From contig NZ_JAMFRV010000080.1 in assembly GCF_026224925.1 (NCBI RefSeq), forward strand, positions 1-46,322: DNA of 46,322 nucleotides, given 5' to 3'. The position numbers were made by a program, and so were the translations under genes. Shown here one piece after another: positions 9,870-36,376 of the stretch. The stretch comes from Pseudomonas sp. (GTDB lineage: Bacteria; Pseudomonadota; Gammaproteobacteria; Pseudomonadales; Pseudomonadaceae). Position 1 is the first letter of the stretch; each line of letters begins with the position of its first letter. The notes below the pieces were generated by a model. That model saw only the letters and a list, made by a program, of their open reading frames with translations. It made no database searches and was not told the DNA's origin.

Positions 9870-11456
9870 TTATTGGCAATTTTTGATCAAATCGGCGGCC
9901 TTCTCTCCAATCATGATGCACACCGAATTAGGGTTCCCTGAAATCAGGGTGGGCATGATCGATGCGTCGGCAACGCGCAGCCCTTCAATGCCATGCACCT
10001 TCAGATCCGGACCTACAACCGAGTGGTCGTCTACGCCCATACGGCAGGTACCGGAAGGATGGAGTGCCGCGTGAGCCTCTTCGTGACAGAATTTTTTCAT
10101 GGCCTCTCGCGACCTGACCGTAGCGTCCGGCACATGACGCCTGGCGAGATAGGGTTTGAAAGCGGCCTGGGACATGATTTCCTCGCCCACAAGGCAACCG
10201 TCCACCAGACTTTCAATATCGTAAGGGTCTGAAAAATAGTTGGGCACTATACGCGGAGGCGACATCGGGTCTGCCGAATACAGCTCAACATAGCCTCTGG
10301 ATTTTGGACGTATCTGGCCCAGGTTCAGCGTGCAGCCGTTGCCGCCGGGGACGGAGTCAATGCCCTCTTCGATACCTGCGCCAACGACCATGAAATACTG
10401 GATATCAGGATTGGTTGCCGCCTTGTCTCCCCACCAGAAAGCCCCGCCTTCAATCAAGTTGGACGCAGCAGGGCCTTGCCTGAACAGGGCGTATTGCAAG
10501 GCCGCCATCATTTTCCAGTGCGGTTTTTTGTACTTGTCGTAGCTGTGCGGGCCCGTCAGCTCATAAACGAGCGACACTTCAATATGGTCCTGAAGATTCT
10601 GCCCTACACCGGGCAGGTCCTGGATAACGTTGATGCCATGCTTATCGAGCTGCGCTGCCGGGCCAATGCCGGACAACATCAACAAGCGTGGGGAGTTGAT
10701 AGCGCCGGCGGATAAAACGATTTCCTTTTCGGCGTACATCACTTGACGCACACCGTTCTCGATATATTCAACGCCAATGGCTTTTTTCCCCTGCATCAAG
10801 ATACGGATCACCCGACAACCCGTCTTGACCGCCAGGTTCTTGCGTGACTTCGCGGGCGCCAGGTAGGCCACCGCCGCACTGCTGCGAAAACCATTTTTGG
10901 CCGTGATTTGATAAAGCCCGCAACCTTCAGGTTTGCCGGAGTTGAAATCCTCGTTGTACGGCAAACCGTACTGCTGGCAAGCGCGAAGCCACACCTTGGT
11001 CAGTGGATGGATATTGATAGGGTCAGAAACACCCAACGGTCCACCGACACCATGAACGTCGTTACAGAAGCGCTCGTTGTCTTCGGCTTTTTTGAAGTAA
11101 GGCAATACATCTTTATAGGACCAGCCCGTTGCCCCCTGCTCGACCCAACCATCGTAATCAGCGGGTACGCCGCGAATATAAATCATCGCATTGACCGAAC
11201 TCCCGCCACCCAGCACGCTAGCCTGGACCATGGTCGGCGTTGCAGTCCTGCGTTGATCTTCAGTGGGCTCCCACGCATACCGTTTGAGCAGCGGACCTTG
11301 CGCCGTTTTATAGTAGGCGCCGGGAATATGGATGTAGGGGTTGCGGTCACGAGGCCCCTCTTCAAAAAGGACCACGGACGCAGAAGTATCTTCGCTGAGT
11401 CTCGATGCCACCGTGCAGCCTGTCGAGCCGCCTCCGATTACGATGAAATCCACCAT
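9870..11456 (-). CDS. GMC FAD oxidoreductase (L-sorbose dehydrogenase-like), paralogue A
   Basis: GGGSTG, LGGGSSVNAM, GQNLQDH, HPSGTCRMG, GNPN. Confidence 0.92.
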   Translation of the reverse strand: MVDFIVIGGGSTGCTVASRLSEDTSASVVLFEEGPRDRNPYIHIPGAYYKTAQGPLLKRYAWEPTEDQRRTATPTMVQASVLGGGSSVNAMIYIRGVPADYDGWVEQGATGWSYKDVLPYFKKAEDNERFCNDVHGVGGPLGVSDPINIHPLTKVWLRACQQYGLPYNEDFNSGKPEGCGLYQITAKNGFRSSAAVAYLAPAKSRKNLAVKTGCRVIRILMQGKKAIGVEYIENGVRQVMYAEKEIVLSAGAINSPRLLMLSGIGPAAQLDKHGINVIQDLPGVGQNLQDHIEVSLVYELTGPHSYDKYKKPHWKMMAALQYALFRQGPAASNLIEGGAFWWGDKAATNPDIQYFMVVGAGIEEGIDSVPGGNGCTLNLGQIRPKSRGYVELYSADPMSPPRIVPNYFSDPYDIESLVDGCLVGEEIMSQAAFKPYLARRHVPDATVRSREAMKKFCHEEAHAALHPSGTCRMGVDDHSVVGPDLKVHGIEGLRVADASIMPTLISGNPNSVCIMIGEKAADLIKNCQ

Positions 11457-11525
11457 GACGACCTAATACCTTTTATGAGGTACACATTGTAAGAACGGGA
11501 GTTTTTAATCCGGGTAAGCGGCGCT

Positions 11526-12410
11526 TTATCGCCCAACAAGTCGGGTTAAAAGTGCCTTCAGATCTTTCGCGACCTCATAACTGTTTTGCTGCTGCTGTTT
11601 TTTACAAAACAACTCACAGCTCCACCATCCGTCGTAACCGGTAGCCTTTACCGCGGCAGTCCACTCGGCAAGGTTCAATATCCCGTTCCCCGTCGGTATA
11701 TCTCGGAGTAATTCTTCATTGGGAATACCGCCTTCAAAAGGCAGCGAATCACACACATGCACGCCATAGATAACGTCTTTGTTCATGCGTGCGATTTCTT
11801 CTGGCCTAACGCCGGACGTAAAACAGTGCCAGTAATCGATGACCATCTTGACGTTGTCGCGTTCGGTGCGATCAATCAGCTGTAGTTGGTGCTCCAGCGT
11901 ATTCAATGGCGTCCATGACAAAGCTTCAAGATAGAGAAGAACACCATATTGCTTTGCCAAGTCAGCGAGCAGCGCAAGATTCTTGGCAGTCAACGCATAT
12001 TGTTCGGCATCATCCAAACCCAGCAAACCGGTGTAATGAGCGCTCGTGCCATGCTTCTGGTAATCGATCACCGCTTGAACGTTGATGGGCCCGGTGAGTA
12101 CTTGAACACCTTTGGCGCCGGCCAGGTTGGCCAATTGAAAAAGCCGTTCCGCTTCCTTCAGCAAATCATCGCGTTCGGCGCCTTGGCGTTCGATATCCCT
12201 CAGGTAACCGATCCCTGTGACGGGGATATCCTTCAGCAACGCTTTCAGTTCCGGCTCCGAATAACCGGCCTGCAAATAGGCTTCCAGTTTGCCGCTGTAG
12301 ATCTCCAACGCATCGAAACCGACAGTCTTCGCAATGTCGATGTCTATGGCCAGCGTCGAATGTTTTGCGACTGTGGAATGCAAGGCCAGGATGTTTTTTT
12401 GAGTGTGCAT
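11526..12410 (-). CDS. Sugar-phosphate isomerase/epimerase (xylose isomerase-like TIM barrel)
   Basis: Metal ligands in YLEAL, IDYWH, HVCD, PTGNG, WSCELF. Confidence 0.88.
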   Translation of the reverse strand: MHTQKNILALHSTVAKHSTLAIDIDIAKTVGFDALEIYSGKLEAYLQAGYSEPELKALLKDIPVTGIGYLRDIERQGAERDDLLKEAERLFQLANLAGAKGVQVLTGPINVQAVIDYQKHGTSAHYTGLLGLDDAEQYALTAKNLALLADLAKQYGVLLYLEALSWTPLNTLEHQLQLIDRTERDNVKMVIDYWHCFTSGVRPEEIARMNKDVIYGVHVCDSLPFEGGIPNEELLRDIPTGNGILNLAEWTAAVKATGYDGWWSCELFCKKQQQQNSYEVAKDLKALLTRLVGR

Positions 12411-12491
12411 ATGAGGCTCCTACCGTTGACACCCAGTGTAGAGTGATCGAGTCCCAGTAGTGATTTCGCACTCACAGGAAATGCGGCGCAA

Positions 12492-12514
12492 CCTGACGCA
12501 CTCACTGCGTCAGG
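12492..12514. other. Intergenic hairpin
   Basis: CCTGACGCA-ctcac-TGCGTCAGG perfect 9-bp stem between the GH3 pair and the TIM-barrel gene. Confidence 0.5.
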
Positions 12515-12665
12515 CTTTCGATAATTGGCTAAGACGTCATTCCCCAGCGACCGGGAGGATGGCTACAACCTCAAGCAGTGAGAGATGGCTCGCTCGTGAT
12601 AGCGGTCTGACAATCAACATTGATAGTGACTGATCTATCGCTACCACGAGCCAGCGCCCTCCTGC

Positions 12666-13682
12666 TTAAGCTTCTGCGAGGCGATTGGCCAATGCCGATA
12701 CAGCTAAAGCAGCGGCGTCCAGCCGCTCCTGCGGTAAGGTCCCACGAGCGACAGCTGCGGTAATGGCGCAAACAATCTGCGCAATCTCAGGCATTGCCTT
12801 TGCGGAAATCAGCAATAGATCGGCCCCTGCATTCAGAGCTGCAACCGCCACCTCGCCGAGTGATGAGTTTCTCATCGTGGAGCGGTGGTCCAAGTCAATG
12901 GTCATCACCAATCCCTTGAACCCCAGTTCATCTCGCAGCAAACCAATAAGCTCAGGCGAAACGGATGCCGCAACGGGCGGCTCGCAGGCAGCAAAAATCG
13001 CCGGTCCCATCATCACCGCGTCCGCACCGGCGTCCACCCCGGCTTGAAACGCAGGCCAGTAGGCACGTAGCTGATCCAGTGACTCGGTGACCACCGCCTC
13101 TTCAACAGATGGTTGGCGCAGCAACACCGGATGTCCGGGGAAGTGCTTCAGGGTGCTCGCCATCCCGGCACGTCGTACACCGCGGACATAGGCACCGACC
13201 ATGGCCGCGGCCCGATTTACATCATCGGACAGTGTGCGCCCCTGCAACCATACATTGGTTCCACCGACCACATCAGCTGTCGGCGACAAGAGCAGATTCA
13301 CACCGGCGTCTCGCACTTTCGTCGCAACCTGAAAACAGGCATCTTCGAGCTCAGCAAGATCCATTACCCTGGCCAGATCAAGTTCAGGTAGCGCAGGCGC
13401 TACCCCTTGCAAGCGGTGAACGGCGGATATGTCAGCATCGGCCGCCAGTATCAGCGGCCCGGCAAAGTTTTTTGCAGTGCCGGTGAACCGTTGCCACTTT
13501 TCAAGCGTTTCAGATTCCAGGCGGCTCGCGCCCATTTTACCGCTGACATACTCCTGCGTGGTTTCGCCAAACAGCAGGCTGCGCCCTCCACAGCCCAGAA
13601 ATCTGCGCACGTCCTCATTCATGTCCAGATCGAGCAAAACTGGAAACAGGACGCTGAATGCCTTGCTTTCAATTGAGCTCAT
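12666..13682 (-). CDS. GH3 N-terminal-domain (NagZ-like) protein, degenerate copy 2
   Basis: KHFPGH, LLRDELGFKGLV, ALNAGADLLL. Has ADADIS for DQEGG and TIDL for SDDL. ATG 13682 lies just after the upstream stop. Confidence 0.85.
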   Translation of the reverse strand: MSSIESKAFSVLFPVLLDLDMNEDVRRFLGCGGRSLLFGETTQEYVSGKMGASRLESETLEKWQRFTGTAKNFAGPLILAADADISAVHRLQGVAPALPELDLARVMDLAELEDACFQVATKVRDAGVNLLLSPTADVVGGTNVWLQGRTLSDDVNRAAAMVGAYVRGVRRAGMASTLKHFPGHPVLLRQPSVEEAVVTESLDQLRAYWPAFQAGVDAGADAVMMGPAIFAACEPPVAASVSPELIGLLRDELGFKGLVMTIDLDHRSTMRNSSLGEVAVAALNAGADLLLISAKAMPEIAQIVCAITAAVARGTLPQERLDAAALAVSALANRLAEA

Positions 13683-13684
13683 GA

Positions 13685-14719
13685 TCAATCCCGGTTTGAG
13701 TTGTGCTGGTCATTATTGGCCGCTGCCAGTTCGCGAACCTTGAAGGCCGCGTCTAACAAAATCTGACGGCCCAGAACGCCTTCGTGAACAGCCGCCACAA
13801 TGGATTCGGCAATGGCATCAAGGCCCGACTCACTGGACACGAGCAACAGATGTGCGCCGGCCGCCAGCGAAGCAATAGCAGTGTCCGTGATGGAGTTGCC
13901 CCTGAGGATGGATACCGCATCAAGGTCATCCGAGATGATCAAGCCCTCGAATCCAAGGGTGTCACGCAGAACCCCGATGACTTTGGACGAAGTTGAGGCC
14001 GAATGATCAGAGTCGATTGCAGGAAAAACGGCTGGCCCTGGCATCACCGCTTTCACACCAGTAGCGATGACCTCCTTGAACACTTCGAGGTTGTCATGGA
14101 GCAACTCCAGCGGCCCGAGAACCGTGGCTTCAGCTATTGCCGGGTCCTGCTCGGTGACGTAGTGACCGGGAAAGTGTTTAGCAGTTGCAATGACGCCAGC
14201 GCGTTGAACCCCGCGGATATAGGCACAGGACAACCGACTGACTTCAACGGGGTCGGCGCCCAAATGCCGGTTGTGTAGCCATGGGTTGGCGCCGGTGACC
14301 ACATCGACGATCGGCGCCAGAAACAGATTAACGCCTAGACCGCGCGCCACGTTGGCCATCACAAAGCAGCGTTGCTCGATGTCCTGTGAACTGAGGTCCT
14401 TGAGCTGTTCTCTCGATGCGACTGCCGGGACCAATTGGTGAAGGCGTTGGATACCGCCGAGTTCCTGATCCACCGCGATCAGCACCGGCACACCGGCCAA
14501 TGACGCGGCTTCCCGGGCGATATTGACAAAGTCGGCCTGAGATTCGGCGTCCTTGCGCGCCGGACTCATGTCTCGGCCTACGTACTCATCCCGGGTTTCA
14601 CCCAGCAAAATAGACACGCCACCACGCCTCAAATAACGACGGACATTGTCGTCCAGACTCAAATCGCTGAATGCGGGAAGCAGTACCGAATACGCAGCTC
14701 TATGCAGTTCGCTTGACAT
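13685..14719 (-). CDS. GH3 N-terminal-domain (NagZ-like) protein, copy 1
   Basis: AVDQELGG, APIVDV, AKHFPGH, LRDTLGFEGLIISDDL. Confidence 0.88.
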   Translation of the reverse strand: MSSELHRAAYSVLLPAFSDLSLDDNVRRYLRRGGVSILLGETRDEYVGRDMSPARKDAESQADFVNIAREAASLAGVPVLIAVDQELGGIQRLHQLVPAVASREQLKDLSSQDIEQRCFVMANVARGLGVNLFLAPIVDVVTGANPWLHNRHLGADPVEVSRLSCAYIRGVQRAGVIATAKHFPGHYVTEQDPAIAEATVLGPLELLHDNLEVFKEVIATGVKAVMPGPAVFPAIDSDHSASTSSKVIGVLRDTLGFEGLIISDDLDAVSILRGNSITDTAIASLAAGAHLLLVSSESGLDAIAESIVAAVHEGVLGRQILLDAAFKVRELAAANNDQHNSNRD

Positions 14720-14859
14720 AGCTATTCCTCAACACCGTTATTTTGAGCAGAAAGCTCAACTTTATTGACGCATGACGGGGTGCCACGCATGATATCGATC
14801 AACTTCGAGCACAACACAAGCCATTAATGCTCGTTTATGCAACTTTACACAGGAAACAA

Positions 14860-15639
14860 ATGAAGTCAATGCTCACTCATGAAGCTTTCCCCGGAGAACG
14901 GCAAAACCTGATTGCGGAACGGCTAGCGACCCATGGCCGGGTTTTGGCTGGGGATCTCGCCCAGGAATTCAAAGTTTCGGAGCACTCGATCCGCCGAGAT
15001 CTCGCCGCGCTGGCGGATGCGGGAATCTGCAAGCGCGTGTACGGCGGCGCTATTTCAGTGGCCCCTGCGCGAGGCGATCATGACGCGCAAAATCAACAGG
15101 CTGACCGGAAGAACTCCCTTGGGCTGGCCGCTGCAGCATTGATCAAAGCCGGCCAACATATTTTCATGGATGGAGGTACCACCAATGCATCCATTTCGAG
15201 CGTAATCGATCACAATCTTGCAATTTCAATCACGACCAACTCGCCGGCAATTGCCCTTGAACTGGAAAAGCTGCCATTGGCCGATGTGATCTTGCTTGGG
15301 GGACGCCTGCACAAGGCGACCGGCAGCACCGTCGGCCTGACAGCAATTCAGCAGTTGTCGAATTTCAATTTCGACCTGTGCTTTTTGGGCGCCTGTGCGA
15401 TTGACGCCATCAAGGGCGTGACGGCTTTCGACATGGACGATGCGGAATTCAAGCGCACCGTTGTCTCTCGTAGCGGGCAGATTGTGGTCGCCGCGACCAA
15501 CGAAAAACTGTCGAGTATCGCGCATTACCAGGTCGCGTCATGCGAGGAGCTGGGTATATTGGTGGTAGAAAGAGACGCCCCTGCTGAACGGCTTGCGCCC
15601 ATCCAGGCCAAGGTTTCAAACATTGTGGTCGCCTCTTGA
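14860..15639 (+). CDS. DeoR/GlpR transcriptional regulator
   Basis: VSEHSIRRDL, RVYGGA, FMDGGTT, ITTNS, FDLCFLG. AGGA RBS before ATG 14860. Confidence 0.92.
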   Translation: MKSMLTHEAFPGERQNLIAERLATHGRVLAGDLAQEFKVSEHSIRRDLAALADAGICKRVYGGAISVAPARGDHDAQNQQADRKNSLGLAAAALIKAGQHIFMDGGTTNASISSVIDHNLAISITTNSPAIALELEKLPLADVILLGGRLHKATGSTVGLTAIQQLSNFNFDLCFLGACAIDAIKGVTAFDMDDAEFKRTVVSRSGQIVVAATNEKLSSIAHYQVASCEELGILVVERDAPAERLAPIQAKVSNIVVAS

Positions 15640-15649: not shown

Positions 15650-16819
15650 TTACTGTTCTGGAAAAGGCACCCAGGCACGCCGTTGACTCGACTCGACACA
15701 CGCCTGGGACAACACCACTCCACGCACGCCCTCGTGAATATCCGGTAAAGGGACGGTGGTCGCCGTGCGCCAGCCTGTTCCGGCATCGAGTGCTTCGGCG
15801 AAATCGGCATAAAGAACGGCAAGCGCCTCCAGATACCCTTCCGTATTACCCGCCGGCAAACTGGTGAAGGTCAACGTCTGAGCCGCATTGTCGCTCTGGC
15901 CACGGCGGTAGATGCGGTCGGCGCCGTCAAAGGGCGTAAACAGCAGCGTTTCCGGTGATTCTTGACACCATTCTATTGAAGCTTTGCTGCCGACGATCTT
16001 GAAACGCAATCCGTTGCGATGACCCGGCACCGCGAAACTGGCCCATAACAATCCATCTACGCCGCCCTCGAATTCAAGTTGCACCACACAAGTGTCGTCC
16101 AACTCCCAGCCGGGTACGACCGTGCTCAATTTGGCGTTCAGATTCGTGCAGCGCCGTCCGGACAGGAACTCAAGCATGTTGAAGGCGTGTGTCCCGACAT
16201 CGCCCAAAGCGCCGGTCGGGCCGGCCTTTTCAGGGTTGCCACGCCACGCGAGGCTCTTGCTCAATCCGTCGATGCCGGGCGCCAACCATTCCAGAAGGTA
16301 CTCGACATACATGAAGCGAACTTCACCCAGTTCCCCGGCCTGAATACGGCTACGAGCATCCCTGACCATGGGATAGCCTTGATAGGTGTACGTCACCGCG
16401 AAAAAAGTATTGTGCCGGTCGGCAATACTGGCCAACTCGTAGGCCTCTTGCGGACGATTGACCAACGGCTTGTCGCAAATAACCGGGATCCCCGCCCGCA
16501 GAAATAGCTGACACGGTTCAAAATGCAGGTGATTGGGCGTCACGATGACAACTGCATCAATCGGATCTGGCCGACGCGACTCGGCAGCTGCCATGTCCTC
16601 GAATGACAGGTAAATCCGGTCTGCCTCGAGGTTGAATGCCGCCCCGGCCTCACGGCATTTGTCCGCGTCCGAAGAGAAGGCGCCGGCAACAATATCGAAG
16701 CGATTGCACAGGCGCATGGCAGCACGATGATAACTGGCAAAATAAGCCCCTTGCCCACCTCCAACCATGCCTACCTTGAAGCGCCTTTGCCCTGGAATGT
16801 CGCCCGTTAACCTTGCCAT
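15650..16819 (-). CDS. Gfo/Idh/MocA NAD(P)-dependent oxidoreductase
   Basis: GMVGGGQG, VTPNHLH, CDKP, GALGDVGTHA, PAGNTEGYLEA. Confidence 0.92.
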   Translation of the reverse strand: MARLTGDIPGQRRFKVGMVGGGQGAYFASYHRAAMRLCNRFDIVAGAFSSDADKCREAGAAFNLEADRIYLSFEDMAAAESRRPDPIDAVVIVTPNHLHFEPCQLFLRAGIPVICDKPLVNRPQEAYELASIADRHNTFFAVTYTYQGYPMVRDARSRIQAGELGEVRFMYVEYLLEWLAPGIDGLSKSLAWRGNPEKAGPTGALGDVGTHAFNMLEFLSGRRCTNLNAKLSTVVPGWELDDTCVVQLEFEGGVDGLLWASFAVPGHRNGLRFKIVGSKASIEWCQESPETLLFTPFDGADRIYRRGQSDNAAQTLTFTSLPAGNTEGYLEALAVLYADFAEALDAGTGWRTATTVPLPDIHEGVRGVVLSQACVESSQRRAWVPFPEQ

Positions 16820-17357
16820 AGCTTAAAGACTCCAATAGATGGCACGCACTTGTGCATCGCCAGGTATTAGCAACAACGAATGCGCCACAGGGAGTATCAC
16901 TGGCGATTCTTTTTTTCTCCATTTCGCACAACAGCGATACCTGACGCGGACCGCAGCACCCCGCAAATAACGGCCAAGAACGCGTCGAATTGACTCCGTG
17001 AAAAAGGCCCTCTCACACAAACAATCAACAAGGTGTTACTTCGGAAAAATCAATGTGTTACTTACTGTGGTGGCGAGTAACCCTGCATTTTTTGGCAGAC
17101 TGCTTGGGCCACGAGAAGCGACGAATTGCAGAGCGTTTGTCACTGTCGAAAAATGCGAGAAAACGCTTACAATCTGACGCATCGGCCTCTTTGAACGAGC
17201 TGAACTTGAATTCAACAAAACGGCATGGAACATGCTTAATTAAATTGGAATACGTTTAAGTAATTGAGTTTATATGGGTTAAGCAAAAGGTTATTCGATA
17301 ACCAGTATATAACCGCTATAACCCCGCCTTATCCGAACTGACCAGATCGAGATAACA

Positions 17358-18251
17358 ATGCCCAGTCGAGGAGACCCGCCCCCAATGTCTTTAACTGCCG
17401 CCACCTCGCACCCCGAGCGACAACAGGTTCGCAGTGACTTGCAGGCAAACGTGCAAAAGAACCTCAGTACCCTTGTTGAGTCCTGCCGATCGGTTGCAGA
17501 CATGTGCCGCAAGGTCGATGTCAATCGCCAGCAGTTCAACAAGTACTTGGTTGGCCAGCACGTACCTTCACAGAAGATCCTTCAGAAAATCGGCCGTTAC
17601 TTCATGATGGAAGCTGAAGACCTTTTTCGGCCGCCCGCCGAGTTCAAGAAATTCTATGAAGGGTATGAAAACGAATTGCCGACGGACTTGCGTGCCTCGG
17701 CTCAATTCAATCATTTCCTGCCTTTGGCAAAGCAATCTGCCGATTTACTCGAAGACTACCTGGGCGTCTATTACCGATACCACAACTCATCGATCTACAA
17801 AGGCAGAATCCTGCGCTCGGTCACTTGCCTGTATCGAGCCGATTCAATGGTCCAGTACGTCACGGTAGAGCGCTTCCCCTTGCTGGATGGCAGCGGAAAG
17901 ATTGGCTACTCATTCACCTATCACGGTTTTTGCCTGCTCCTTGGGGACCGCCTGTTCCTGGTGGATTTTGAAGGCAAGCAACGTAACGAGATGACGTTTT
18001 CGATTCTGACCCCGCAACATCGCCGACCGATCCGGTTCCTCTATGGATTGGTCACCGGGGTGGCGTCTTCATCATTCCGCCAGCCCTTTTCCACCCGAAT
18101 GGCACTGGGGCTCGTGGACAAAGGCAAGATCCGTAAACATCACCTGCGCAATGCAACTGCGGTGCTTCCTAGCGATCAGTCATTGCCACTGGAGGTGCGT
18201 GAATACATGACCGGCGACAACGCCACTATCGTATGGGGCGGTCAGGACTGA
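17358..18251 (+). CDS. XRE-like HTH transcriptional regulator with uncharacterised C-terminal domain
   Basis: SVADMCRKVDVNRQQFNKYLVGQHVPS HTH. Start may be ATG 17385. Confidence 0.75.
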   Translation: MPSRGDPPPMSLTAATSHPERQQVRSDLQANVQKNLSTLVESCRSVADMCRKVDVNRQQFNKYLVGQHVPSQKILQKIGRYFMMEAEDLFRPPAEFKKFYEGYENELPTDLRASAQFNHFLPLAKQSADLLEDYLGVYYRYHNSSIYKGRILRSVTCLYRADSMVQYVTVERFPLLDGSGKIGYSFTYHGFCLLLGDRLFLVDFEGKQRNEMTFSILTPQHRRPIRFLYGLVTGVASSSFRQPFSTRMALGLVDKGKIRKHHLRNATAVLPSDQSLPLEVREYMTGDNATIVWGGQD

Positions 18252-23859: not shown

Positions 23860-23864
23860 TCACC

Positions 23865-28058: not shown

Positions 28059-28219
28059 CAATTTGCTCCAGATGGTTCTTGATGCAGGCGACATGCATTC
28101 AGCATTGGTCGCCATCTTTTCGTACCCCCCTGCTCTCGGCAATTTCGCAGCCCCCTTATTGATGACGCGATCTGACGCAGCACAGACGCAATGCTGAAGC
28201 ACTGGCGCGGACGAACTTT

Positions 28220-28234
28220 GTTATTCGTATAACC
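28220..28234. promoter_or_regulatory. Operator copy (1 mismatch) GTTATTCGTATAACC
   Basis: Direct match to the palindrome repeated at 28285, 34903 and 35014. Confidence 0.7.
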
Positions 28235-28248
28235 TCATTACAAAGTCA

Positions 28249-28276
28249 TTGACTTAGAGAATCGTAGTGATAGCTT
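28249..28276 (+). promoter_or_regulatory. Putative sigma70 promoter for the thuA-ThDP-GMC operon
   Basis: TTGACT-16 nt-TAGCTT with TGn extended -10. Operator lies immediately downstream. Confidence 0.5.
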
Positions 28277-28284
28277 AAATAAAC

Positions 28285-28300
28285 GGTTATACGTATAACC
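28285..28300. promoter_or_regulatory. Perfect 16-bp palindrome GGTTATACGTATAACC, candidate LacI operator
   Basis: Central CG palindrome in a divergent promoter region, recurring in the island. Confidence 0.8.
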
Positions 28301-28335: not shown

Positions 28336-29061
28336 GTGAGTCGAGTCTTGTATCTATACGGTGGCTGGCCCGGCCATTTTCCATATGAAATTGCCGCATG
28401 GGCTCGGACCGTTTTCCAGGAGCTGGATTTCGATGTCGAAGAGTCGACCGACATCTTCACACTGGACAGGGACTTGACCGGTTACGACCTGATCGTGATC
28501 GGCTGGAACAACGCGGTCACCACTGAAACACTGACAGCCTCTCAAGAAAACCGCCTGCTCGAAGCGATCGAAAGCGGCACCGGGCTGGTGGGTTGGCACG
28601 GTGCGGGCGCAGCTTTCCGTGCAAGCCTCAAGTATCACTGGGTGCTGGGCGGATCGTTTCTTGAGCATCCGATGGGCGAAGGTTTTCCCCATCCGTACCA
28701 AGTCAACGTCATCGATCACACGCATGAGGTCACTCAAGGCGTCGAGGATTTCGAGGTTCGGTCCGAGCAGTACTACATGCAGGTTGACCCGAACATTCAT
28801 GTGCTGGCCGAAACCACGTTCGATGGCAACCCGTTTCCTTGGATCAAGGGTCACCGCAGCCCGGTCGCGTGGGTTCGTCAATGGGGCCTCGGGCGGGTGT
28901 TCTATCACTCGATCGGGCACGACACCAGCAACCTCGCCGACCCGAATATCCGCCGCCTGACCAAGCAGGGCCTGAACTGGGCGACGCGCGGGCGTGCAAC
29001 GGATATCGGCAAATCCGACGTATCCACTCCACTTTCATCAACCCAAGGAGTCCTGTCATGA
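28336..29061 (+). CDS. ThuA-domain protein (class I glutamine amidotransferase-like fold)
   Basis: GGWPGH, GLVGWHG, EQYYM, WGLGRVFYHSIGH. GAGG RBS. Confidence 0.88.
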   Translation: MSRVLYLYGGWPGHFPYEIAAWARTVFQELDFDVEESTDIFTLDRDLTGYDLIVIGWNNAVTTETLTASQENRLLEAIESGTGLVGWHGAGAAFRASLKYHWVLGGSFLEHPMGEGFPHPYQVNVIDHTHEVTQGVEDFEVRSEQYYMQVDPNIHVLAETTFDGNPFPWIKGHRSPVAWVRQWGLGRVFYHSIGHDTSNLADPNIRRLTKQGLNWATRGRATDIGKSDVSTPLSSTQGVLS

Positions 29062-30845
29062 GCAAATTGACCGGCAGCCAGATCGTGGCTCAAACCCTGA
29101 AAAACTATGGCGTCGAATATGTCGCCGGCATCCCCGGCCACGGTATCTGGACACTCACCGACGCCTTCCTCGAAGAAGACTCGAAGCTTAAGTTCATCCA
29201 GGTCTTCCACGAACAAAGTGCCGTTCACCTGGCAGATGGTTACTACCGGGTTTCCGGTAAGCCCATGGCGGCTGTCACCTCCATCGGTGCAGGCGCCGCC
29301 AACACCGTGATCGGCATGGCAACCGCTTTCACCGACTCCACCAGCCTGATGCTGATCACCGGCGGGCCGCCCACACACATGCGCGGCCACGGTTTGTTGC
29401 AAGAGCTGGAGCGCTACACCGACAACGACTTCCCGAAAATCGCCGAAGCTGTCACCAAGCGTCACTGGGTCGCTACTCGCGTTGAAGAGTTGCCGTTCAT
29501 GATGCATCGGGCCTGGAGCGCGATGGTCACTGGCCGCCCAGGCCCGGTCCATCTTGAAATTCCGATGGACGTTCAGGCTGAGGCGGCCGAAGTCACACTT
29601 CACGCTTTGGAAGAACGCACCCCTATCGGAAAGTGTTTCCCGGATCCGAAGGCCACTGCTCGAGCGGTTGAAGAACTGAAGCTTTGCAAGCGCCCGGTGC
29701 TAGTTATCGGTGGCGGGGTTATCACTGGCGAGGCAAGCGCCGAAGTGCTCGCGCTGGCCGAGTCCTGGAAAATTCCGGTGGTTACCACCTGGAACGGCAA
29801 AAGTGGTTTCCCGGAAGATCATCCGCTGTTCGCTGGCAGCGTCGGCCAGACCGGCACGATGTGCGGTAACAAAGTGGCCTCCACTGCTGACGTCATTATT
29901 GCTGTGGGGTGTCGCTTCACGGACTGGTCGTCGTCCAGTTATGCCAAGGGCGTGACCTTTGCGATTCCGCCATCGAAGCTTATCCACATCGACATCGATC
30001 CGCACGAGATCGGCAAGAACTACCCAGTTACCGTGGGTATTTGTGCAGATGCCAAGCACGCGCTGGCCCATATCGTGGAAGGTTTGAAAGATCAGACTGT
30101 GGATCGCGAAGAGTACTTAAGCGACCTGCGAGGCTATCAGGCCGAATGGGAGTCCAAGCTGGCTGGCCGTCGTGACTCTGATCGCTTTCCTTTCACCTCT
30201 CAACGTCCGTTGGGCGCGCTGCGCAAGATATTCCCGCGCGACACCATCGTAGTCGTCGGGTCCGGCAATACTCAGGGTGCGGTTAAACAAACCTTCCCTG
30301 TTTATACCCCGCGTACACACCTGACTTCTGGCGGATTTTCGTCCATGGGCTGGGCAGTTCCGGCCGCTATCGGGGCCAAGTTGGCCGCGCCAAACCAGCC
30401 GGTGGTGTGCATCCTGGGCGATGGCGATTTCCTGATGACCTCTCAAGAAATTGCTATCTGTGTGACCAACAACATTCCTGTGGTGTTCATGATCCAGAAC
30501 AACGCCGGGTACATGTCGATTCGCGGTGGCCAGCGCAAACAAACCAGCCGCCATATCGGCACCGAGTTCAATCATCCGGACGGCACTCCATATAGCCCAG
30601 ACTTCAAAGCGGTCGGCGAAGCCTTCGGCCTGAAATCCTATCGTGTGGAGCGCCCGGAAGACCTCGAGCCGATCCTGCAAGAAGCCTTGGATCTGAACGT
30701 CCCTGTGTTGATCGAAATCCCGACTGATCGCGACGCCGCTGGCCCTTGGGTACCGGGCTGGTGGGACTTCCCGATCCCTGAGTACATCACTGACGAACGC
30801 CAGGACGAGTACTGGGAATTGCGGAAATCCGAACAACACCTATAA
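29058..30845 (+). CDS. ThDP-dependent enzyme (acetolactate synthase/IolD-like), intact motifs
   Basis: PGHG, HEQ, LQE, GPV, SMGW, GDGDF...NN. ATGA overlap with the thuA-like gene. Confidence 0.92.
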   Translation: MSKLTGSQIVAQTLKNYGVEYVAGIPGHGIWTLTDAFLEEDSKLKFIQVFHEQSAVHLADGYYRVSGKPMAAVTSIGAGAANTVIGMATAFTDSTSLMLITGGPPTHMRGHGLLQELERYTDNDFPKIAEAVTKRHWVATRVEELPFMMHRAWSAMVTGRPGPVHLEIPMDVQAEAAEVTLHALEERTPIGKCFPDPKATARAVEELKLCKRPVLVIGGGVITGEASAEVLALAESWKIPVVTTWNGKSGFPEDHPLFAGSVGQTGTMCGNKVASTADVIIAVGCRFTDWSSSSYAKGVTFAIPPSKLIHIDIDPHEIGKNYPVTVGICADAKHALAHIVEGLKDQTVDREEYLSDLRGYQAEWESKLAGRRDSDRFPFTSQRPLGALRKIFPRDTIVVVGSGNTQGAVKQTFPVYTPRTHLTSGGFSSMGWAVPAAIGAKLAAPNQPVVCILGDGDFLMTSQEIAICVTNNIPVVFMIQNNAGYMSIRGGQRKQTSRHIGTEFNHPDGTPYSPDFKAVGEAFGLKSYRVERPEDLEPILQEALDLNVPVLIEIPTDRDAAGPWVPGWWDFPIPEYITDERQDEYWELRKSEQHL

Positions 30846-30862: not shown

Positions 30863-32491
30863 ATGAGTGATGCATTGATTTCGCATCATGCAGAGCTGAA
30901 TCCACAACTGGGGGCGCCGCGCGAGCAGCGCGCCCTCGACGTGGTGACACCTGATGCAGATGGCAATATCAACTGTGATGTAGTGATTGTCGGCTCGGGC
31001 ATGGGCGGCTCCACCTTTGCCCATGCTTTACGCGATAGCGGCCTGGACATTGTGATCGTCGAACGGGGTGATTTCCTGCCGCGTGAAATACAGAACTGGA
31101 GCACCGAATCGGTGTTCGCAGAAGGCCGTTATCGAAATGCCGAGCAGTGGCTGGATGAATCCAACCAACCTTTTTCTCCGGGCGTATTTTATTACGTAGG
31201 CGGCAACACCAAGTTTTACGGAGCAATGCTCCCACGGTTTCGTGAAGAGGACTTTGCCGAGATTCAGCACGTCGAGGGCATATCCCCCGCCTGGCCGATC
31301 AGCTACGCGGAATTGGAACCTTGGTACGCCGAGGCCGAAAAACTCTACCGGGTTCATGGCCAGGCGGGCATCGATCCCTGCGAGCCCTGGCGCTCGGGCC
31401 CTTTTCCGCAACCTGCGCTCAACCATGACCCGGCGTTGGCGCCGCTGGAGGCAAGCATGCGCCGTTCCGGGCTCAAACCCTTTGTCATGCCCGCAGCGGT
31501 GGACTATGGCGACGGCGGTGACTGCGTGTTGTGTTCAACCTGTGATGGATACCCCTGTCTTGTGGACGCCAAAGCCGACGCAGAGGTGTCTGCCCTGAGG
31601 CCAGCGCTGCGCAGCGCAACCGTCAGGCTTATGACCCGCACAACGATCAAACAATTGAAAACCGCCGAGGACGGCCGGACCGTCACCGAGGCTCATGGCC
31701 TCTTGAATGGCCGAGACGTAACGCTGCGCGCCAAACGCTTCATACTGGCGTGCGGAGCAGTGAACAGCGCAGCCCTGTTGTTCAAGTCAGCGAACGAACA
31801 GCACCCCGACGGCCTAGGTAATAGCTCAGGGCAACTGGGTCGAAACTACATGGTGCACAACAGCACATTCATGCTCGCCGTCGACCCACGCCGCAAGAAC
31901 AAAGTGATTTTCCAGAAAACCCTGGCCATCAACGATTGGTACAGCGCCAGCGCCCTCAATTCGTTCCCTTTGGGCAACGTGCAGATGCTTGGAAAAATTC
32001 GCGAACCGATGATCACCTCGATGCGCCCCTGGCTTCCAAAGTTCGTATCGCGATACCTCACCGACCACAGCGTCGACCTGTACCTGACATCAGAGGATTT
32101 GCCAACGCAGGAAAACCGAGTCACTTATGACAAGCTGCGCGGGGCGATCAAAGTGCACTGGAAACCAAACAACCTGAAGGCCCATGAAGGCCTAGTGAGC
32201 AAGACCAGTAAAGTCATGCGAGAGGCTGGCTACCCACTGATCCTGAAAGCGCGCATGGGGATTGCCACAAACTCGCACCAGTGTGGCACTGCCGTCATGG
32301 GCAAGGAGCCGACGTCAAGCGTGCTGGATCTGAATTGCAAGATGCATGACCTGGATAACGTCTGGGTGGTCGACAGTTCTTTCTTCCCGTCTTCGGCCGC
32401 TGTTAATCCGGCGCTCACCATCGCGGCCAATGCCTTGCGGGTCGCGGCGAATTTCAAGCGTGGCGAGTTGAACGGCAAAAAGAAAATCTGA
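30863..32491 (+). CDS. GMC FAD oxidoreductase with Cys cluster (glucoside/aminoglycoside oxidase-like type)
   Basis: VGSGMGG, GGNTKFYG, CVLCSTCDGYPC, GRNYMVH, SHQCGT, NPALTIAA. Confidence 0.88.
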   Translation: MSDALISHHAELNPQLGAPREQRALDVVTPDADGNINCDVVIVGSGMGGSTFAHALRDSGLDIVIVERGDFLPREIQNWSTESVFAEGRYRNAEQWLDESNQPFSPGVFYYVGGNTKFYGAMLPRFREEDFAEIQHVEGISPAWPISYAELEPWYAEAEKLYRVHGQAGIDPCEPWRSGPFPQPALNHDPALAPLEASMRRSGLKPFVMPAAVDYGDGGDCVLCSTCDGYPCLVDAKADAEVSALRPALRSATVRLMTRTTIKQLKTAEDGRTVTEAHGLLNGRDVTLRAKRFILACGAVNSAALLFKSANEQHPDGLGNSSGQLGRNYMVHNSTFMLAVDPRRKNKVIFQKTLAINDWYSASALNSFPLGNVQMLGKIREPMITSMRPWLPKFVSRYLTDHSVDLYLTSEDLPTQENRVTYDKLRGAIKVHWKPNNLKAHEGLVSKTSKVMREAGYPLILKARMGIATNSHQCGTAVMGKEPTSSVLDLNCKMHDLDNVWVVDSSFFPSSAAVNPALTIAANALRVAANFKRGELNGKKKI

Positions 32492-32529: not shown

Positions 32530-32544
32530 ACGCCTTGCGCGGTC

Positions 32545-33645
32545 TTAAATGTCCGTTGCCTGAAACTTTGCCGTCGACGTTCGCACAATTAGTTTGGTGG
32601 CGAAAATCTTCTGCTCGGGCTCCAACTCTGTGCCGGCCGGTGCATTCAGCTGATCGGTCAGAAGCCTTGCGGCGTATACGCCCTTTTCCACCATGGGCTG
32701 GGCAATGGTGGTCAAACCGAGCTGCACTGCCTCAGGGATATCGTCAAAACCAATCACCGAAAGGGCTTGCGGGACCTTCCGGTTGAGAGCGTGAGCCGTC
32801 TTCATGCAAGCAATCGCCATCACATCCGAACAGGCAACCACTGCCGTTACATCGCTGGAAGTCAACAGCGTGAACGCGGCTGTCTGCCCGGAAGTCGAAT
32901 CAAGCCCACCGGCTTCGATAATGCTCAGATCCTCGAATGCCAGGCCGGCCGCGCTTGCAGTCTCCACGTATCCGGTGAGCCGCTCTCTGACAATTCGCTC
33001 GCTAGCGCTTTTGAAACGTTGCCGATCAATTGGACCGCGATAACCGTCGGGGTTGAGTCGGTCAATGATAATGCCTATTTTGCGGTGACCCAGATCCAGC
33101 ATGTGTTGCATCTGCGCGCGGGCGGCGCCTCGATCATCAATTCCGACAAAAAAAGAACCGTCCACTAGAGGTGAATCGATCACCACAAACGGGATGTTTT
33201 GTTTCACGACCGCCAACACGGCCGGGTGATCATCGGGAAGGGTCGAGATAATCAGACCGTCAACCAACCCGCGCAGCGCCAGACTGCCGTGACTCGCGGC
33301 CTGGGCACGACCAACAAGCCGGTTGTTATTGAGTGGAAACAACGTCAGCGCGACATTTTCCAGCTCGCCCACTTCACTGATCCCTCGCAACAAGGCAATG
33401 GTGCAAGGGTCGGCAAACGCCAGGGACAATTTGTCCATCATCATCAACCCGATCGCCCCGATCTTGCCCGAGCGCAGGCTTCGCCCAAGGACGTTAGGTC
33501 CCGGGTAGCCCAAGTTAGCGGCAACCTCGAGGATGTGCTCGCGCTGAGCTTGCGATAGTTTGGATGGGCGATTGTAAGCGTAAGACACCGCAGGCTGAGA
33601 CACCCCCGCCGCCAGTGCTACATCTTTCATTGAAACGGATGCCAT
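32545..33645 (-). CDS. LacI family transcriptional regulator
   Basis: SMKDVALAAGVSQPAVSYAYN HTH, SVIGFDD, LTTIAQP, LIVRTST. Confidence 0.95.
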   Translation of the reverse strand: MASVSMKDVALAAGVSQPAVSYAYNRPSKLSQAQREHILEVAANLGYPGPNVLGRSLRSGKIGAIGLMMMDKLSLAFADPCTIALLRGISEVGELENVALTLFPLNNNRLVGRAQAASHGSLALRGLVDGLIISTLPDDHPAVLAVVKQNIPFVVIDSPLVDGSFFVGIDDRGAARAQMQHMLDLGHRKIGIIIDRLNPDGYRGPIDRQRFKSASERIVRERLTGYVETASAAGLAFEDLSIIEAGGLDSTSGQTAAFTLLTSSDVTAVVACSDVMAIACMKTAHALNRKVPQALSVIGFDDIPEAVQLGLTTIAQPMVEKGVYAARLLTDQLNAPAGTELEPEQKIFATKLIVRTSTAKFQATDI

Positions 33646-33705: not shown

Positions 33706-34875
33706 TCAGTGTAACCGTTGACGGGAAACCTTCGGAACCAGTCGAGTGGCACTGAGCATTATCGCAATCATCAACGAGGCAACGGCGAGTAGCGCCGTAG
33801 ACAGACTGGTCGCTTGGGCGACAAGCCCGATGACTGCCGGGCCCATCAGGATGCCGAGGTAACCCAGACTGGTCGCAGCGGCAATGGCCAATTCACCTGG
33901 CATGGTCCTCTGGGCACCCGCCAGCGATAAATAAACCGGCGCAATGTTCGCCAATCCCGCGCCGATGACCGCAAAACCTACCAGGTTCAACAGCCAGTCA
34001 GTCGCCAGCACCACCGTCATGAATCCCGTTATCACAACAAGACCGCCACCAATCAATACCACGCGCGCGCCCAGCTTCAGCAGAATCCGGTCACCACTCA
34101 AGCGCCCCAAGGCCATCATCACTGCGAACGCTGCGTAGCCCAGGCCGGCAATCGAATGCTGAACGCCTCGTACCTCAGCGAGGAATGCCGCGCTCCAGTC
34201 GAGAATGGCGCCCTCAGCAAGAAAGGCAAACAGGCACAGCAAGCCCAACAGCAGAACTTTGCGGGTGGGTCTGACAAATATCGGGCTGCCTTCGTCACCG
34301 CTGCGCCCCAACATCTGCCGTCCGTATGTCAGTACAAATGCGACCAGTAGCGCCATTACTGCACTGCTTGCCAACAACGGCGTGGCCCCAAGCCATAACA
34401 ATCCGGTGATACCTGCAGCACTGACAATCGCTCCCAGGCTGAACAAGCCATGGAACCCCGACATCAGTGAGCGCCCGGTTGCACGCTCCACCATCACCCC
34501 CTGAACGTTCATCGTCACATCGATCGACCCACACCCTGCGCCAAACACTGTCAGAGCGAACATCAATCCTGAGAAAGAATGGGTCGTCGCCAACATGGGC
34601 AAAGTCAGCAATACCAGAGCGATGCCGACGTGCATGGTAAAGCGACAACCTTTCCTGGCGTTCAGAATGCCTGCGAGCGGCATCATCACCAGTGAACCCA
34701 GGCCAAGGCAGAGCAACAGTAGACCGAGCGCACCATCGTCGACACCTGCCCGGCTACGCGCATAAGGAACCAAGGGAGCCCATGCGCCCATGCACAGGCC
34801 TGACATCAGGAACGTCGCCCGATAGGCCGGCATATGAGGTGTAGAGCACGGCAGTACCAGTTCTTGAGACGACAC
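33706..34875 (-). CDS. MFS transporter (YbjJ-like)
   Basis: AWAPLVP, DVTMNVQG, MSGFHGLFSLG, EGAILDWSA. About 12 TM. Confidence 0.9.
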   Translation of the reverse strand: MSSQELVLPCSTPHMPAYRATFLMSGLCMGAWAPLVPYARSRAGVDDGALGLLLLCLGLGSLVMMPLAGILNARKGCRFTMHVGIALVLLTLPMLATTHSFSGLMFALTVFGAGCGSIDVTMNVQGVMVERATGRSLMSGFHGLFSLGAIVSAAGITGLLWLGATPLLASSAVMALLVAFVLTYGRQMLGRSGDEGSPIFVRPTRKVLLLGLLCLFAFLAEGAILDWSAAFLAEVRGVQHSIAGLGYAAFAVMMALGRLSGDRILLKLGARVVLIGGGLVVITGFMTVVLATDWLLNLVGFAVIGAGLANIAPVYLSLAGAQRTMPGELAIAAATSLGYLGILMGPAVIGLVAQATSLSTALLAVASLMIAIMLSATRLVPKVSRQRLH

Positions 34876-34902
34876 GGAAACCTCTGTGGCCGATCCATGG
34901 AA

Positions 34903-34916
34903 GTTATACGTATAAC
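34903..34916. promoter_or_regulatory. Operator copy GTTATACGTATAAC
   Basis: Perfect 14-bp palindrome upstream of the MFS-lacI unit. Confidence 0.8.
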
Positions 34917-35013
34917 CTAAATTAACCCGTTAGGCCACTGGGGTCAAAAAAGATAGAATGGTACAACCATAAAAATATTGACATAAGCCAGACTTAAAAT
35001 GTTAAGTTTATGA

Positions 35014-35029
35014 AGTTATACGTATAACT
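35014..35029. promoter_or_regulatory. Operator copy AGTTATACGTATAACT
   Basis: Perfect 16-bp palindrome downstream of TTGACA (34978-34983), upstream of the second MFS. Confidence 0.8.
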
Positions 35030-35092
35030 CAAATCAGCATTATCTTCAATTGCATGAACACCCAACAAAAATAAAAGGGACAATGCAGCGCG

Positions 35093-36376
35093 ATGAACAA
35101 CCTTCAAACAACTCAGATCCCCACCCGTATTCGCAAGGCACGTGTCGCGACCTTCTTGGGCTTCATGATGATTGGCGCAATGATGTACATCTGGTCGACG
35201 GGTGTGAGTGTATTCAGAGCGCAGCTGAGTCTTACCGGCGAATTGGGAGATGCGAATTTCGGGTTGATCGCGCTCGGCGTCGGTCTTGGTTCCGCAACAG
35301 GTGCACTGTGTGTGGGCCGCTTGCTGGATACCTTTGGTGCGAAGCCGGTCATCACGGTATGCGCACTGGCCTATCCCCTGTCCATCATTCCGCTGGGCTT
35401 CGTCAGTGGTTTTTGGTTCGCGTTGTGTTTCGGTGTCGTGCTGGGATTGCTGAGAGGGGCGCTGGATACCGCTTTGAATGCGCATGGTGTTCAAGTCGAA
35501 CGTTTCTACCAGCGCTCGATCATGTCCGGCTTCCACGCGTTTTATTCACTGGGAGGCTTTTTGTTAGGGATGGTGTGCAGTTGGCTCACAAGCCTCTACA
35601 CCGACAGCGTTCAACTGCCCTACACCGTACTTGGCGTGGCGCTGTTTATCGTGGGCTGTTTTTTCAGCCGATGGCTGCTGGGCAAGCATGATGTTCCCGA
35701 GTCGTCATCCAACGACTGGCAAGCGCACGCGCAGTTACCTGATGAGGCCATGGGTCCATCGGCAAAAACATTGCTGGTCATGATTGCTCTCGGAGTCCTG
35801 CTGTTAGGCAGCATGATGGGGGAAAATGCGATTGCAGATTGGGGTCAGGAATACATCCGCCGCGAATTTGCAACAACAACCTCGACAGCAGGCATGGCCG
35901 TGTCCATCTTTGTCGGCGCAGCCTTCATCGGGCGTCTTTTCGGTGACCGGTTGGCGGCGGCGTTTGGTAATTCGCAAGTAGTCTTCGGATGCGGAACGCT
36001 GTGCGTCCTCGGCATGACGATTACCATCGTCGGTGGCACCGTAGTGACCGGCATCATCGGCTTTGCTTTGTTCGGCCTCGGCCTTTCCTGCATCGCCCCC
36101 TTGATGATCTCCGCCGCCGGGCGCAGAGATCCGAAACGTGCGGGTCGCAATATCGGCATCGTCAACTCTATCGGTTTCTCCGGGATGCTCGTGGGGCCTG
36201 CCGCGATCACCGTGATCGTCAGCAATTTCGGCCTGAGCACACTGATGTATTTCCCACTGGTTATGCTCGGCCTGCTGGCAACATTTGGCCCACTTCTGAT
36301 GCGAACGCCTAGAACCATTGTCATCGCCGAACTGCCCTCTATTGCCAGGACTGGTTCTGGCTCATCCTTGTCGTAG
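35093..36376 (+). CDS. MFS transporter (YbjJ-like), second copy
   Basis: DTALNAHG, MSGFHAFYSLG, ENAIADW, GRLFGDRL. Confidence 0.9.
   Translation: MNNLQTTQIPTRIRKARVATFLGFMMIGAMMYIWSTGVSVFRAQLSLTGELGDANFGLIALGVGLGSATGALCVGRLLDTFGAKPVITVCALAYPLSIIPLGFVSGFWFALCFGVVLGLLRGALDTALNAHGVQVERFYQRSIMSGFHAFYSLGGFLLGMVCSWLTSLYTDSVQLPYTVLGVALFIVGCFFSRWLLGKHDVPESSSNDWQAHAQLPDEAMGPSAKTLLVMIALGVLLLGSMMGENAIADWGQEYIRREFATTTSTAGMAVSIFVGAAFIGRLFGDRLAAAFGNSQVVFGCGTLCVLGMTITIVGGTVVTGIIGFALFGLGLSCIAPLMISAAGRRDPKRAGRNIGIVNSIGFSGMLVGPAAITVIVSNFGLSTLMYFPLVMLGLLATFGPLLMRTPRTIVIAELPSIARTGSGSSLS

Follow-up and report, generated by a model that had tools for sequence, protein, structure and literature searches.

What compound is degraded by the gene cluster at positions 9870-36376 of contig NZ_JAMFRV010000080.1 from Pseudomonas sp. 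(assembly GCF_026224925.1), a stretch of 46,322 nucleotides that is referred to here as the window? An earlier note, written from the sequence alone, had proposed a nitrogenous cyclic substrate, with the iminosugar 1-deoxynojirimycin (DNJ) among its candidates, and had recognized no described pathway; the former proposal held, whereas the latter did not. The right half of the cluster (26775-36376) encodes a HisD-like dehydrogenase, a ThuA-domain protein, a thiamine diphosphate (ThDP)-type protein designated ThDP2, the flavoenzyme GMC3, a LacI repressor, and two MFS transporters. Judging by its sequence, it is very probably orthologous to the cluster for DNJ breakdown in Pseudomonas fulva ZJU1, which has been proven genetically; this core has already been described, without enzymology (PMC11494336). 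Only the right half maps onto that cluster, and for this half the mapping onto a characterized pathway, which the earlier note had named as a refutation, holds. The left half is probably a co-regulated add-on that imports related iminosugars and converts them for entry into the DNJ core. Taken as a whole, the locus extends the known cluster: it carries two candidate regulons and a probable pseudoenzyme, and its proposed pathway can be tested. New with respect to the ZJU1 report are the two candidate cis-elements, the tie between the left half and the core, the probable ThDP pseudoenzyme, the wider range of phyla, and the recruitment of aspartase.

P. fulva ZJU1 is a silkworm-gut bacterium that grows on DNJ, a mulberry toxin, and its cluster comprises genes 3029-3036 (PMC11494336; here and below, statements about ZJU1 refer to the accessible part of that report). 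The cluster suffices for growth on DNJ, deletion of gene 3031, which encodes the ThDP protein, abolishes that growth, and the γ-aminobutyrate (GABA) permease is dispensable. Induction by DNJ is ∼1,000-fold for 3031, 411-fold for 3032 (ThuA), 203-fold for 3036 (HisD-like), 153-fold for 3030 (GMC), 112-fold for 3029 (MFS), 92-fold for 3034 (the GABA permease), and 12-fold for 3035; the LacI gene 3033 and the helix-turn-helix (HTH) gene 3037 are not induced. The report assigns a binding role to the gene 3031 product, IlvB, and a dehydrogenase function to ThuA, and gives no operators in the part available.

The open reading frame for ThDP2 in the window is 1,788 bp, the same length as ZJU1 ilvB, and all five residues named in the report (E253, F258, Q361, W364, and Q411) occur at the same numbers. 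The ThuA-ThDP-GMC gene order is likewise the same, and the HisD-like, LacI, and MFS genes and a neighboring HTH regulator are common to both clusters. For comparison, 80 of 172 confirmed relatives in the genome collection were kept, which gave 59 related loci. One of these, L057 (84% identical to the window), shows the ZJU1 gene order, GABA permease included, and the published reverse primer matches the stop of its orthologue with 2 mismatches in 25 positions. In the tree the window ThDP2 and the L057 protein fall in one fully supported clade, the same operator is kept, and the species in Figure S8 of the report overlap with those of the related loci. The window adds to the ZJU1 set an ABC importer, two GMC flavoenzymes, a TIM barrel, a Gfo/Idh/MocA oxidoreductase (Gfo), two GH3 proteins, a DeoR regulator, tatA, and the probable ThDP pseudoenzyme. 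It lacks the GABA permease, none being present in its cluster span; among the related loci only L057 and L065 have one. A literature search found no later biochemical pathway for DNJ or other iminosugars, its coverage being thin for subscription journals.

Two candidate cis-elements were found in the cluster. A 14-bp palindrome occurs at four sites, all at promoters of the core, as compared to 0.43 expected by chance, and these are the only four with one mismatch or fewer in the 6.9-Mb assembly. It is found in 40 of the 59 loci, and a scan of the window located none in the left half. LacI likely reads this palindrome, and would thereby repress thuA-ThDP2-GMC3 and both MFS genes. The second element, the X box, was found by aligning the intergenic DNA of the left half and consists of tandem TGCGTC repeats followed by TGCGAAAT. 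There are five sites in the cluster versus 0.16 expected by chance, and in every case the box is oriented into a gene. The four exact sites in the genome all lie in the cluster; 16 of the 17 one-mismatch sites lie elsewhere. The upstream repeat accompanies 4 of these 21 sites, all 4 of them in the cluster. The X box is a candidate mark of hisD and four left-half promoters that would tie the left half to the core. Of 44 hisD genes scored, 32 have the box upstream. In L057 and L065 it stands before hisD and gabP, neither of which has a palindrome close by; their ZJU1 counterparts are induced 203- and 92-fold. Since the box occurs both at these genes and at left-half genes, the regulon of the XRE-family protein is inferred to include the left half and to be on during growth on DNJ, with XRE as the predicted activator of hisD, the ABC importer, Gfo-(GH3), TIM-GMC1, and the ThDP pseudoenzyme. 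XRE is the most conserved gene of the cluster, with a median identity of 99% and a ratio of nonsynonymous to synonymous substitution rates (dN/dS) of 0.012; none of the 11 actinobacterial loci, which lack XRE, has an X box. Neither DeoR nor the GH3 pair has its own X box, and in loci without DeoR the GH3 genes directly follow Gfo. A sigma-70 scan of 28000-28400 gave no consensus promoter, and a search for public RNA runs listed none.

The importer and enzymes of the left half can be read in the same light. The nearest solved relative of the TIM barrel in the Protein Data Bank is IolI, and no NCBIfam match was obtained at 1e-15; it is likely a keto-iminosugar isomerase or epimerase. An oxidize-epimerize-reduce funnel serves the inositol isomers, and an IolI-like barrel with Gfo and GMC partners fits such a scheme. 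With respect to the GH3 proteins, the NagZ-type nucleophile Asp is kept in GH3a and replaced in GH3b, the His of the Asp-x-His motif is absent in all 25 GH3 rows, and both proteins are under purifying selection. The importer falls below the NCBIfam cut-offs for PotABCD/PotFGHI, with the substrate-binding protein (SBP) scoring 65.7 against 582 bits and the ATPase 364.5 against 482. Note that the SBP bears a twin-arginine signal and that a tatA paralogue lies in the cluster. By a somewhat better than even judgment, the left half would serve to oxidize, epimerize, and reduce DNJ epimers, to strip iminosugar glycosides of their sugars, and to provide uptake at high affinity, and it would in this way widen the diet to related sugar-mimic alkaloids. 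The earlier note had taken the Pot-type importer as a pointer to a nitrogenous substrate; the minimal pathway, as found in ZJU1, does not include this importer.

The importer does lend itself to another explanation, in which an unrelated amine (a polyamine or an amino alcohol) is the substrate of the left half, which would then be no more than a companion of the DNJ core. The choline-dehydrogenase-like GMC1 and GMC2 and the lack of a palindrome in the left half fit this as well, as does the fact that the left half is separable in genome G302 and absent from G396. We regard this as improbable, given that the left half shares the X box with the core gene hisD, that it almost never occurs without the core, and that in P. 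nitroreducens, among others, TIM-GMC1, Gfo, and GH3 have been reshuffled within the operons of the core. In a sample of 400 genomes of the genus, 21 carry the TIM barrel and 18 the SBP; the core is present in 20 of the former and in every one of the latter. The independence of sub-operons, which the earlier note had named as a refutation, was largely not observed, as the left half shares the X box with hisD and co-occurs with the core.

The core itself is patchy. A ThDP2 orthologue at 84% identity or more occurs in 21 of the 400 genomes, and two more carry only paralogues at 45-47%. ThuA is present in 56 of the 59 related loci, GMC3 in 58, and the HisD-like and LacI genes in 52 each. Eleven of the loci, at 74-76% identity, are from Actinomycetota, and plasmid-borne relatives were found in Priestia (62%), rhizobia (60%), and haloarchaea (45%). 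The range of the core, which includes Actinomycetota and Bacillota, is wider than that given in the legend to Figure S8 of PMC11494336, which confines the enzymes to Pseudomonadota.

Each core enzyme belongs to a recognizable family. Among solved structures the HisD-like protein is closest to HpsN (E 4e-117), a dihydroxypropanesulfonate 3-dehydrogenase, and its score against TIGR00069, 450 bits, exceeds the cut-off of 243.8. The zinc ligands and catalytic Glu-His pair that it shares with HpsN and HisD are kept in 56 of 57 copies. The motif given as G-R-Y-A/S-H for HpsN and G-S-A-P-L for biosynthetic HisD in the available text of PMC11382572 reads GKYPL in 48 copies, GRYPL in 8, and GQYPL in 1, matching neither, and His126, which binds sulfonate in HpsN, is absent from all 57. 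By these motifs the protein appears to represent a third subfamily of HisD/HpsN. A sulfonate substrate (2,3-dihydroxypropane-1-sulfonate), raised by the match to HpsN, was rejected because the HpsN motif is absent. ThuA displays a GATase-like fold with a conserved His/Glu set, and its model (predicted local distance difference test, pLDDT, 95.3) matches only uncharacterized ThuA-like proteins. The ThDP2 model (pLDDT 72.6) matches only folds like that of acetohydroxyacid synthase (AHAS), and its scores are below cut-off both for AHAS (TIGR00118, 403.9 versus 538.35 bits) and for IolD (TIGR04377, 313.5 versus 715 bits). The true IolD of the genome lies elsewhere and is 29% identical to ThDP2, with the GHG and C-terminal WW motifs in common. 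GMC3 groups with FAD-dependent glucose and fructose dehydrogenases and lacks a twin-arginine signal.

In the opening of the myo-inositol ring by IolG, IolE, and IolD, the substrate is oxidized, a dicarbonyl is made, and a ThDP enzyme cleaves it. The earlier note had mapped the cluster onto this trio, a mapping that fails: ThDP2 misses the IolD cut-off, the TIM barrel is nearest to IolI, the NCBIfam matches of Gfo are not IolG, and neither TIM nor Gfo is in the ZJU1 cluster as reported in the accessible text. Membership in the inositol pathway was rejected on these grounds, there being no IolE or IolG orthologues and, as the earlier note had rightly stated, no kinase or aldolase among the open reading frames scanned within the span. 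The core, as proposed below, does resemble that pathway in its order of oxidation, dicarbonyl, and ThDP cleavage and in the GHG motif; it differs in lacking IolB, IolC, and IolJ and in having a flavoenzyme and ThuA in place of IolG and IolE. ThuA proteins have been linked to 3-keto sugar routes (PMC8121099), and the 3-keto-glycoside systems treated in the available part of that work (LacABC, ThuAB, and BT2157-60) also pair a glucose-dehydrogenase-class GMC with a ThuA-domain protein, a family resemblance only. The system in the window, in contrast, is cytoplasmic, and neither a cytochrome nor a small subunit was seen; here the bond broken is likely the ring C-N, and a ThDP step would follow.

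A tentative route, possible but short of probable, can be written from DNJ to acetate and L-aspartate. DNJ carries a (2R)-hydroxymethyl group (PMC6273535, accessible part), and by Cahn-Ingold-Prelog reasoning the geometry of its C5-C6 arm is therefore that of L-histidinol, such that oxidation yields an L-amino acid. The HisD-like enzyme, as the predicted DNJ C6 dehydrogenase, would oxidize the C6 alcohol of this β-amino-alcohol arm to the carboxylate of an L-configured trihydroxypipecolate. GMC3, a predicted ring-hydroxyl dehydrogenase, would then form the 3-ketone. Because this places the ring nitrogen β to the carbonyl, elimination would open the ring: either ThuA, a predicted C-N lyase or dehydratase, or spontaneous chemistry would break the C1-N bond to give a linear 2,3-diketone. 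ThDP2, a predicted C-C cleaving hydrolase, would cut it hydrolytically between C2 and C3 to acetate and L-aspartate, and aspartase would convert aspartate to fumarate and ammonia. The formulas balance, the C4 fragment left by ThDP2 having the formula of aspartate, and since no phosphorylation is needed the route would explain the absent kinase and aldolase. An aspartase gene adjoins the cluster in 6 of the 59 loci (Pantoea and five Actinomycetota), or 7 at a looser threshold that admits a weaker match in one Pseudomonas, and also in Priestia, which brings the phyla to three; aspA is present elsewhere in the genome of the window. In ZJU1, L-aspartate semialdehyde and fumarate have been reported, thiC is up 6-fold, which argues for a catalytic ThDP enzyme, acs, actP, and aspA are up 2.3-, 2.8-, and 1.7-fold, and gcvP is not up; mexEF, dkgB, mdaB, and katE are induced and cultures turn brown (PMC11494336). 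The last observations fit reactive dicarbonyls weakly, and taken together the expression data lean weakly toward acetate and aspartate.

The semialdehyde would be explained more directly by inositol-type chemistry, in which GMC3 forms a 2-ketone, a cyclic 2,3-dione arises as ThuA strips off the hydroxyl at C4, and ThDP2 hydrolyzes the ring as IolD does, leaving N-carboxymethyl-aspartate semialdehyde to be split later. This yields exactly the aspartate semialdehyde and the "dehydroxylation" of the available report, and it accords with the motifs shared by ThDP2 and IolD; it requires, however, a further C-N cleaving enzyme, which is conserved at no locus, and the glycine-cleavage and glyoxylate genes are uninduced in ZJU1. 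We consider it unlikely. That the top profile scores of ThDP2 are to AHAS-like and 2-oxo-acid decarboxylase families suggests a different course: C6 oxidation, conversion of the ring amine to an imine by GMC3, hydrolysis to a 6-amino-2-oxo acid, and loss of CO2. The induction of the GABA permease, kauB, and potF in ZJU1 agrees with this decarboxylation, but GMC3 groups with sugar hydroxyl dehydrogenases, further enzymes would be required for the five-carbon amino-sugar product, and the recurring aspartase is left unexplained, all of which make it quite improbable. Least probable of all, in our view, is that the window variant acts on a different iminosugar or an aminocyclitol and not on DNJ. 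Its proteins differ by ∼16% from the ZJU1-type proteins, and the paralogous ThDP3 clade (45%), which has a separate GMC and lacks ThuA, indicates that the scaffold diversifies; the fully supported clade with L057 and the shared operator speak to the contrary.

A number of observations weigh against the assignment of the core to DNJ degradation, against the route to acetate and aspartate, or against the tie to the left half. The orthology with ZJU1 was built on reading-frame length, residues, primer, and gene order rather than on the ZJU1 sequence itself, and the reverse primer has no match in L090 within three mismatches. In the accessible text on ZJU1 the products named are aspartate semialdehyde and compounds of four and three carbons rather than aspartate plus acetate, which suits IolD-like hydrolysis better, and the changes in acs, actP, and aspA are small, with release from glucose repression as a confounding factor. 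No solved relative of ThDP2 exceeds 33% identity, and none gives a pointer to the reaction; ThuA and GMC3 are missing in 3 and 1 of the 59 loci, respectively. The left half does not lie beside the ZJU1 core, where genes 3038-3043 are unrelated, and is thus not needed for DNJ there; in G302 it is ∼220 kb from the core, and G016 carries a TIM homologue (53%) without any core. The X box was not found in enterobacterial and Alcaligenaceae loci that do have XRE (40-54% identical). Finally, the related genomes are kin rather than independent, and the co-occurrence counts overstate the support.

Both ThDP proteins listed by the earlier note are present, but catalytic motifs are intact in only one. 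ThDP1 lacks the GHG histidine in six of six copies examined, its GDG...N cofactor motif is broken (the window reads GQG, with the Asp lost), and several relatives also lack the catalytic Glu. Its middle domain has been deleted in frame, in differing ways, in 14 of 14 close relatives, such that 346-399 of 566 codons align. In the tree it makes up a separate clade that spans Pseudomonas and Burkholderiaceae (support 98/98). Decay as a pseudogene was rejected, given that the frame is open in all 14 relatives and dN/dS is 0.15, and ThDP1 is likely a conserved, inactive paralogue. The two domains that remain are those from which proteins of this family form their dimer interface, which makes a heteromeric or regulatory role likely. 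The third clade, ThDP3, has intact motifs and its own GMC, together with HisD, XRE, and X boxes, and likely marks a sister pathway for another iminosugar. In these clusters, found in L091-L092 (G383), L097-L098 (G177), and L068, a protein of 230-250 residues replaces ThuA; it has no Pfam or NCBIfam match, is His/Glu-rich, and looks cupin-like by eye. The G383 cluster comes after phage tail and methylase genes.

Every gene that the earlier note had listed was found in the span, and the features are collected in Table 1.

Table 1. Genes and candidate cis-elements of the cluster, with positions in the window.
Feature	Positions	Strand	Remarks
GMC1, choline-dehydrogenase-like flavoenzyme, accessory module	9870..11456	-	61.5% identity to GMC2
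Metal TIM barrel	11526..12410	-	IolI is nearest solved relative
X box, 1 mismatch	12463..12489	-	upstream of TIM-GMC1
GH3b, single-domain GH3, nucleophile Asp replaced	12666..13688	-	dN/dS 0.12
GH3a, NagZ-like single-domain GH3, nucleophile present, His of Asp-x-His motif replaced	13685..14719	-	
DeoR regulator	14827..15639	+	missing in most relatives' clusters
Gfo/Idh/MocA NAD(P) oxidoreductase	15650..16819	-	
X box	16921..16947	-	upstream of Gfo
XRE-family regulator	17385..18251	+	no Pfam match; Atlas XRE cluster 0.98
tatA paralogue	18280..18495	-	above NCBIfam cut-off
ThDP1, degenerate paralogue of ThDP2 (41%)	18559..20259	-	
Two back-to-back X boxes	20371-20397; 20495-20521		towards ThDP1; towards ABC operon
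Pot-type ABC importer (SBP, two permeases, ATPase)	20737..24944	+	
GMC2, choline-dehydrogenase-like	25075..26661	+	absent from several relatives' clusters
HisD/HpsN-family Zn/NAD dehydrogenase	26775..28058	-	putative orthologue of ZJU1 gene 3036, by synteny
X box	28142..28168	-	upstream of hisD-like gene
Palindrome, two copies, predicted LacI operators	28220..28299		between hisD-like gene and thuA
ThuA-domain protein	28336..29061	+	putative counterpart of ZJU1 gene 3032
ThDP2	29058..30845	+	putative orthologue of ZJU1 ilvB (gene 3031)
GMC3, FAD-glucose/fructose dehydrogenase class, Cys cluster motif	30863..32491	+	putative counterpart of ZJU1 gene 3030
LacI repressor	32545..33645	-	putative counterpart of ZJU1 gene 3033
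MFS1	33706..34875	-	
Palindrome, two exact copies	34903..35028		between MFS1 and MFS2
MFS2	35093..36376	+	putative counterpart of ZJU1 gene 3029, by synteny

The cluster is mobile but long-resident. Its G+C content, 55.7% against 56.5% for the genome, gives no sign of recent transfer, and synonymous divergence (dS) from the relatives' cluster genes is near 1. The flanking DNA of the window is shared by none of 89 related loci, some of which end before the flank. Thus the "island" of the earlier note stands as regards its patchiness and unshared flanks, but not its composition. The insertion-sequence remnant said to bracket it is real, a stub of 30 codons at 8628-8717 that is 87% identical to the IstA of the IS21-type element ISPsy14, but a HAD gene separates it from the cluster. 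The toxin remnant proposed for the other edge is a weak match: a stub at 36382-36507 resembles the C-terminus of a toxin-antitoxin toxin, with an E of 0.1 to plasmid genes annotated "toxin" and no Pfam match. The HAD gene, found in 0 of 59 related loci, was rejected as part of the cluster. The same holds for the SIS-PfkB operon (5881-7751), as none of the 59 has the SIS-PfkB pair. That operon belongs to a set at 4847-8583, composed of a GntR/UTRA regulator, an SIS protein, a PfkB kinase, and an amino-acid SBP, which resembles an frl-type fructosamine-deglycase operon with its ABC system cut off at the IS21 stub. Farther out, the left (12-4742) and right (37082-45912) flanks carry a sugar-acid set (epimerase, enolase-superfamily protein, mutarotase, and OprD) and an ADH/CMD/cupin/SDR set with a pyrroloquinoline quinone dehydrogenase, neither of which is shared with the related loci.

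Other genes recur beside the related clusters. A TreS trehalose synthase adjoins 14 of the 59, in three lineages (L021-L024, L028, L029, L034, L040, L042, L060, L063, L073, L074, and L077), and could be a copy of a DNJ target or act on glucosylated DNJ. Directly 3' of the hisD-like gene in 10 of the 59 (L033:5302-7416 and nine others) lies a Cache-domain protein, a candidate iminosugar chemoreceptor. An inositol-monophosphatase-family gene adjoins several clusters (L066:1025-1834 and L112:10231-11016), and its product may dephosphorylate an iminosugar phosphate. L050 and L051 are two ThDP2 copies on one Pseudomonas contig, ∼11 kb apart on opposite strands. In L114, an Arthrobacter plasmid, and in L069, hisD-ThDP-ThuA occurs without an adjacent GMC3; a dehydrogenase of another family takes its place in L114 and is a possible functional replacement.

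Iminosugars are glycosidase inhibitors of plants and microbes and serve as drug scaffolds, and what is known of their destruction by bacteria comes from a single genetic study in which no enzymes were assigned. The locus offers proposed reactions for four enzymes, two predicted operators, and a predicted end product backed by gene recruitment in three phyla, and its accessory module predicts a broader substrate range. In its widest form, which we regard as rather doubtful, the proposal is that four enzymes convert an iminosugar to acetate and L-aspartate without phosphorylation, by way of a third HisD subfamily, a ThuA C-N lyase, and a ThDP enzyme that hydrolyzes the diketone with an internal dehydration like that of phosphoketolase. 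Iminosugars in general would be sensed by an XRE regulon, its conserved ThDP pseudoenzyme included, and this regulon would serve several paralogous cores, the whole being a cross-phylum family that destroys glycosidase inhibitors. Either LacI or XRE could yield an iminosugar biosensor. If ThuA does prove to be a ring-opening C-N lyase, this would be the first reaction for the ThuA-domain proteins.

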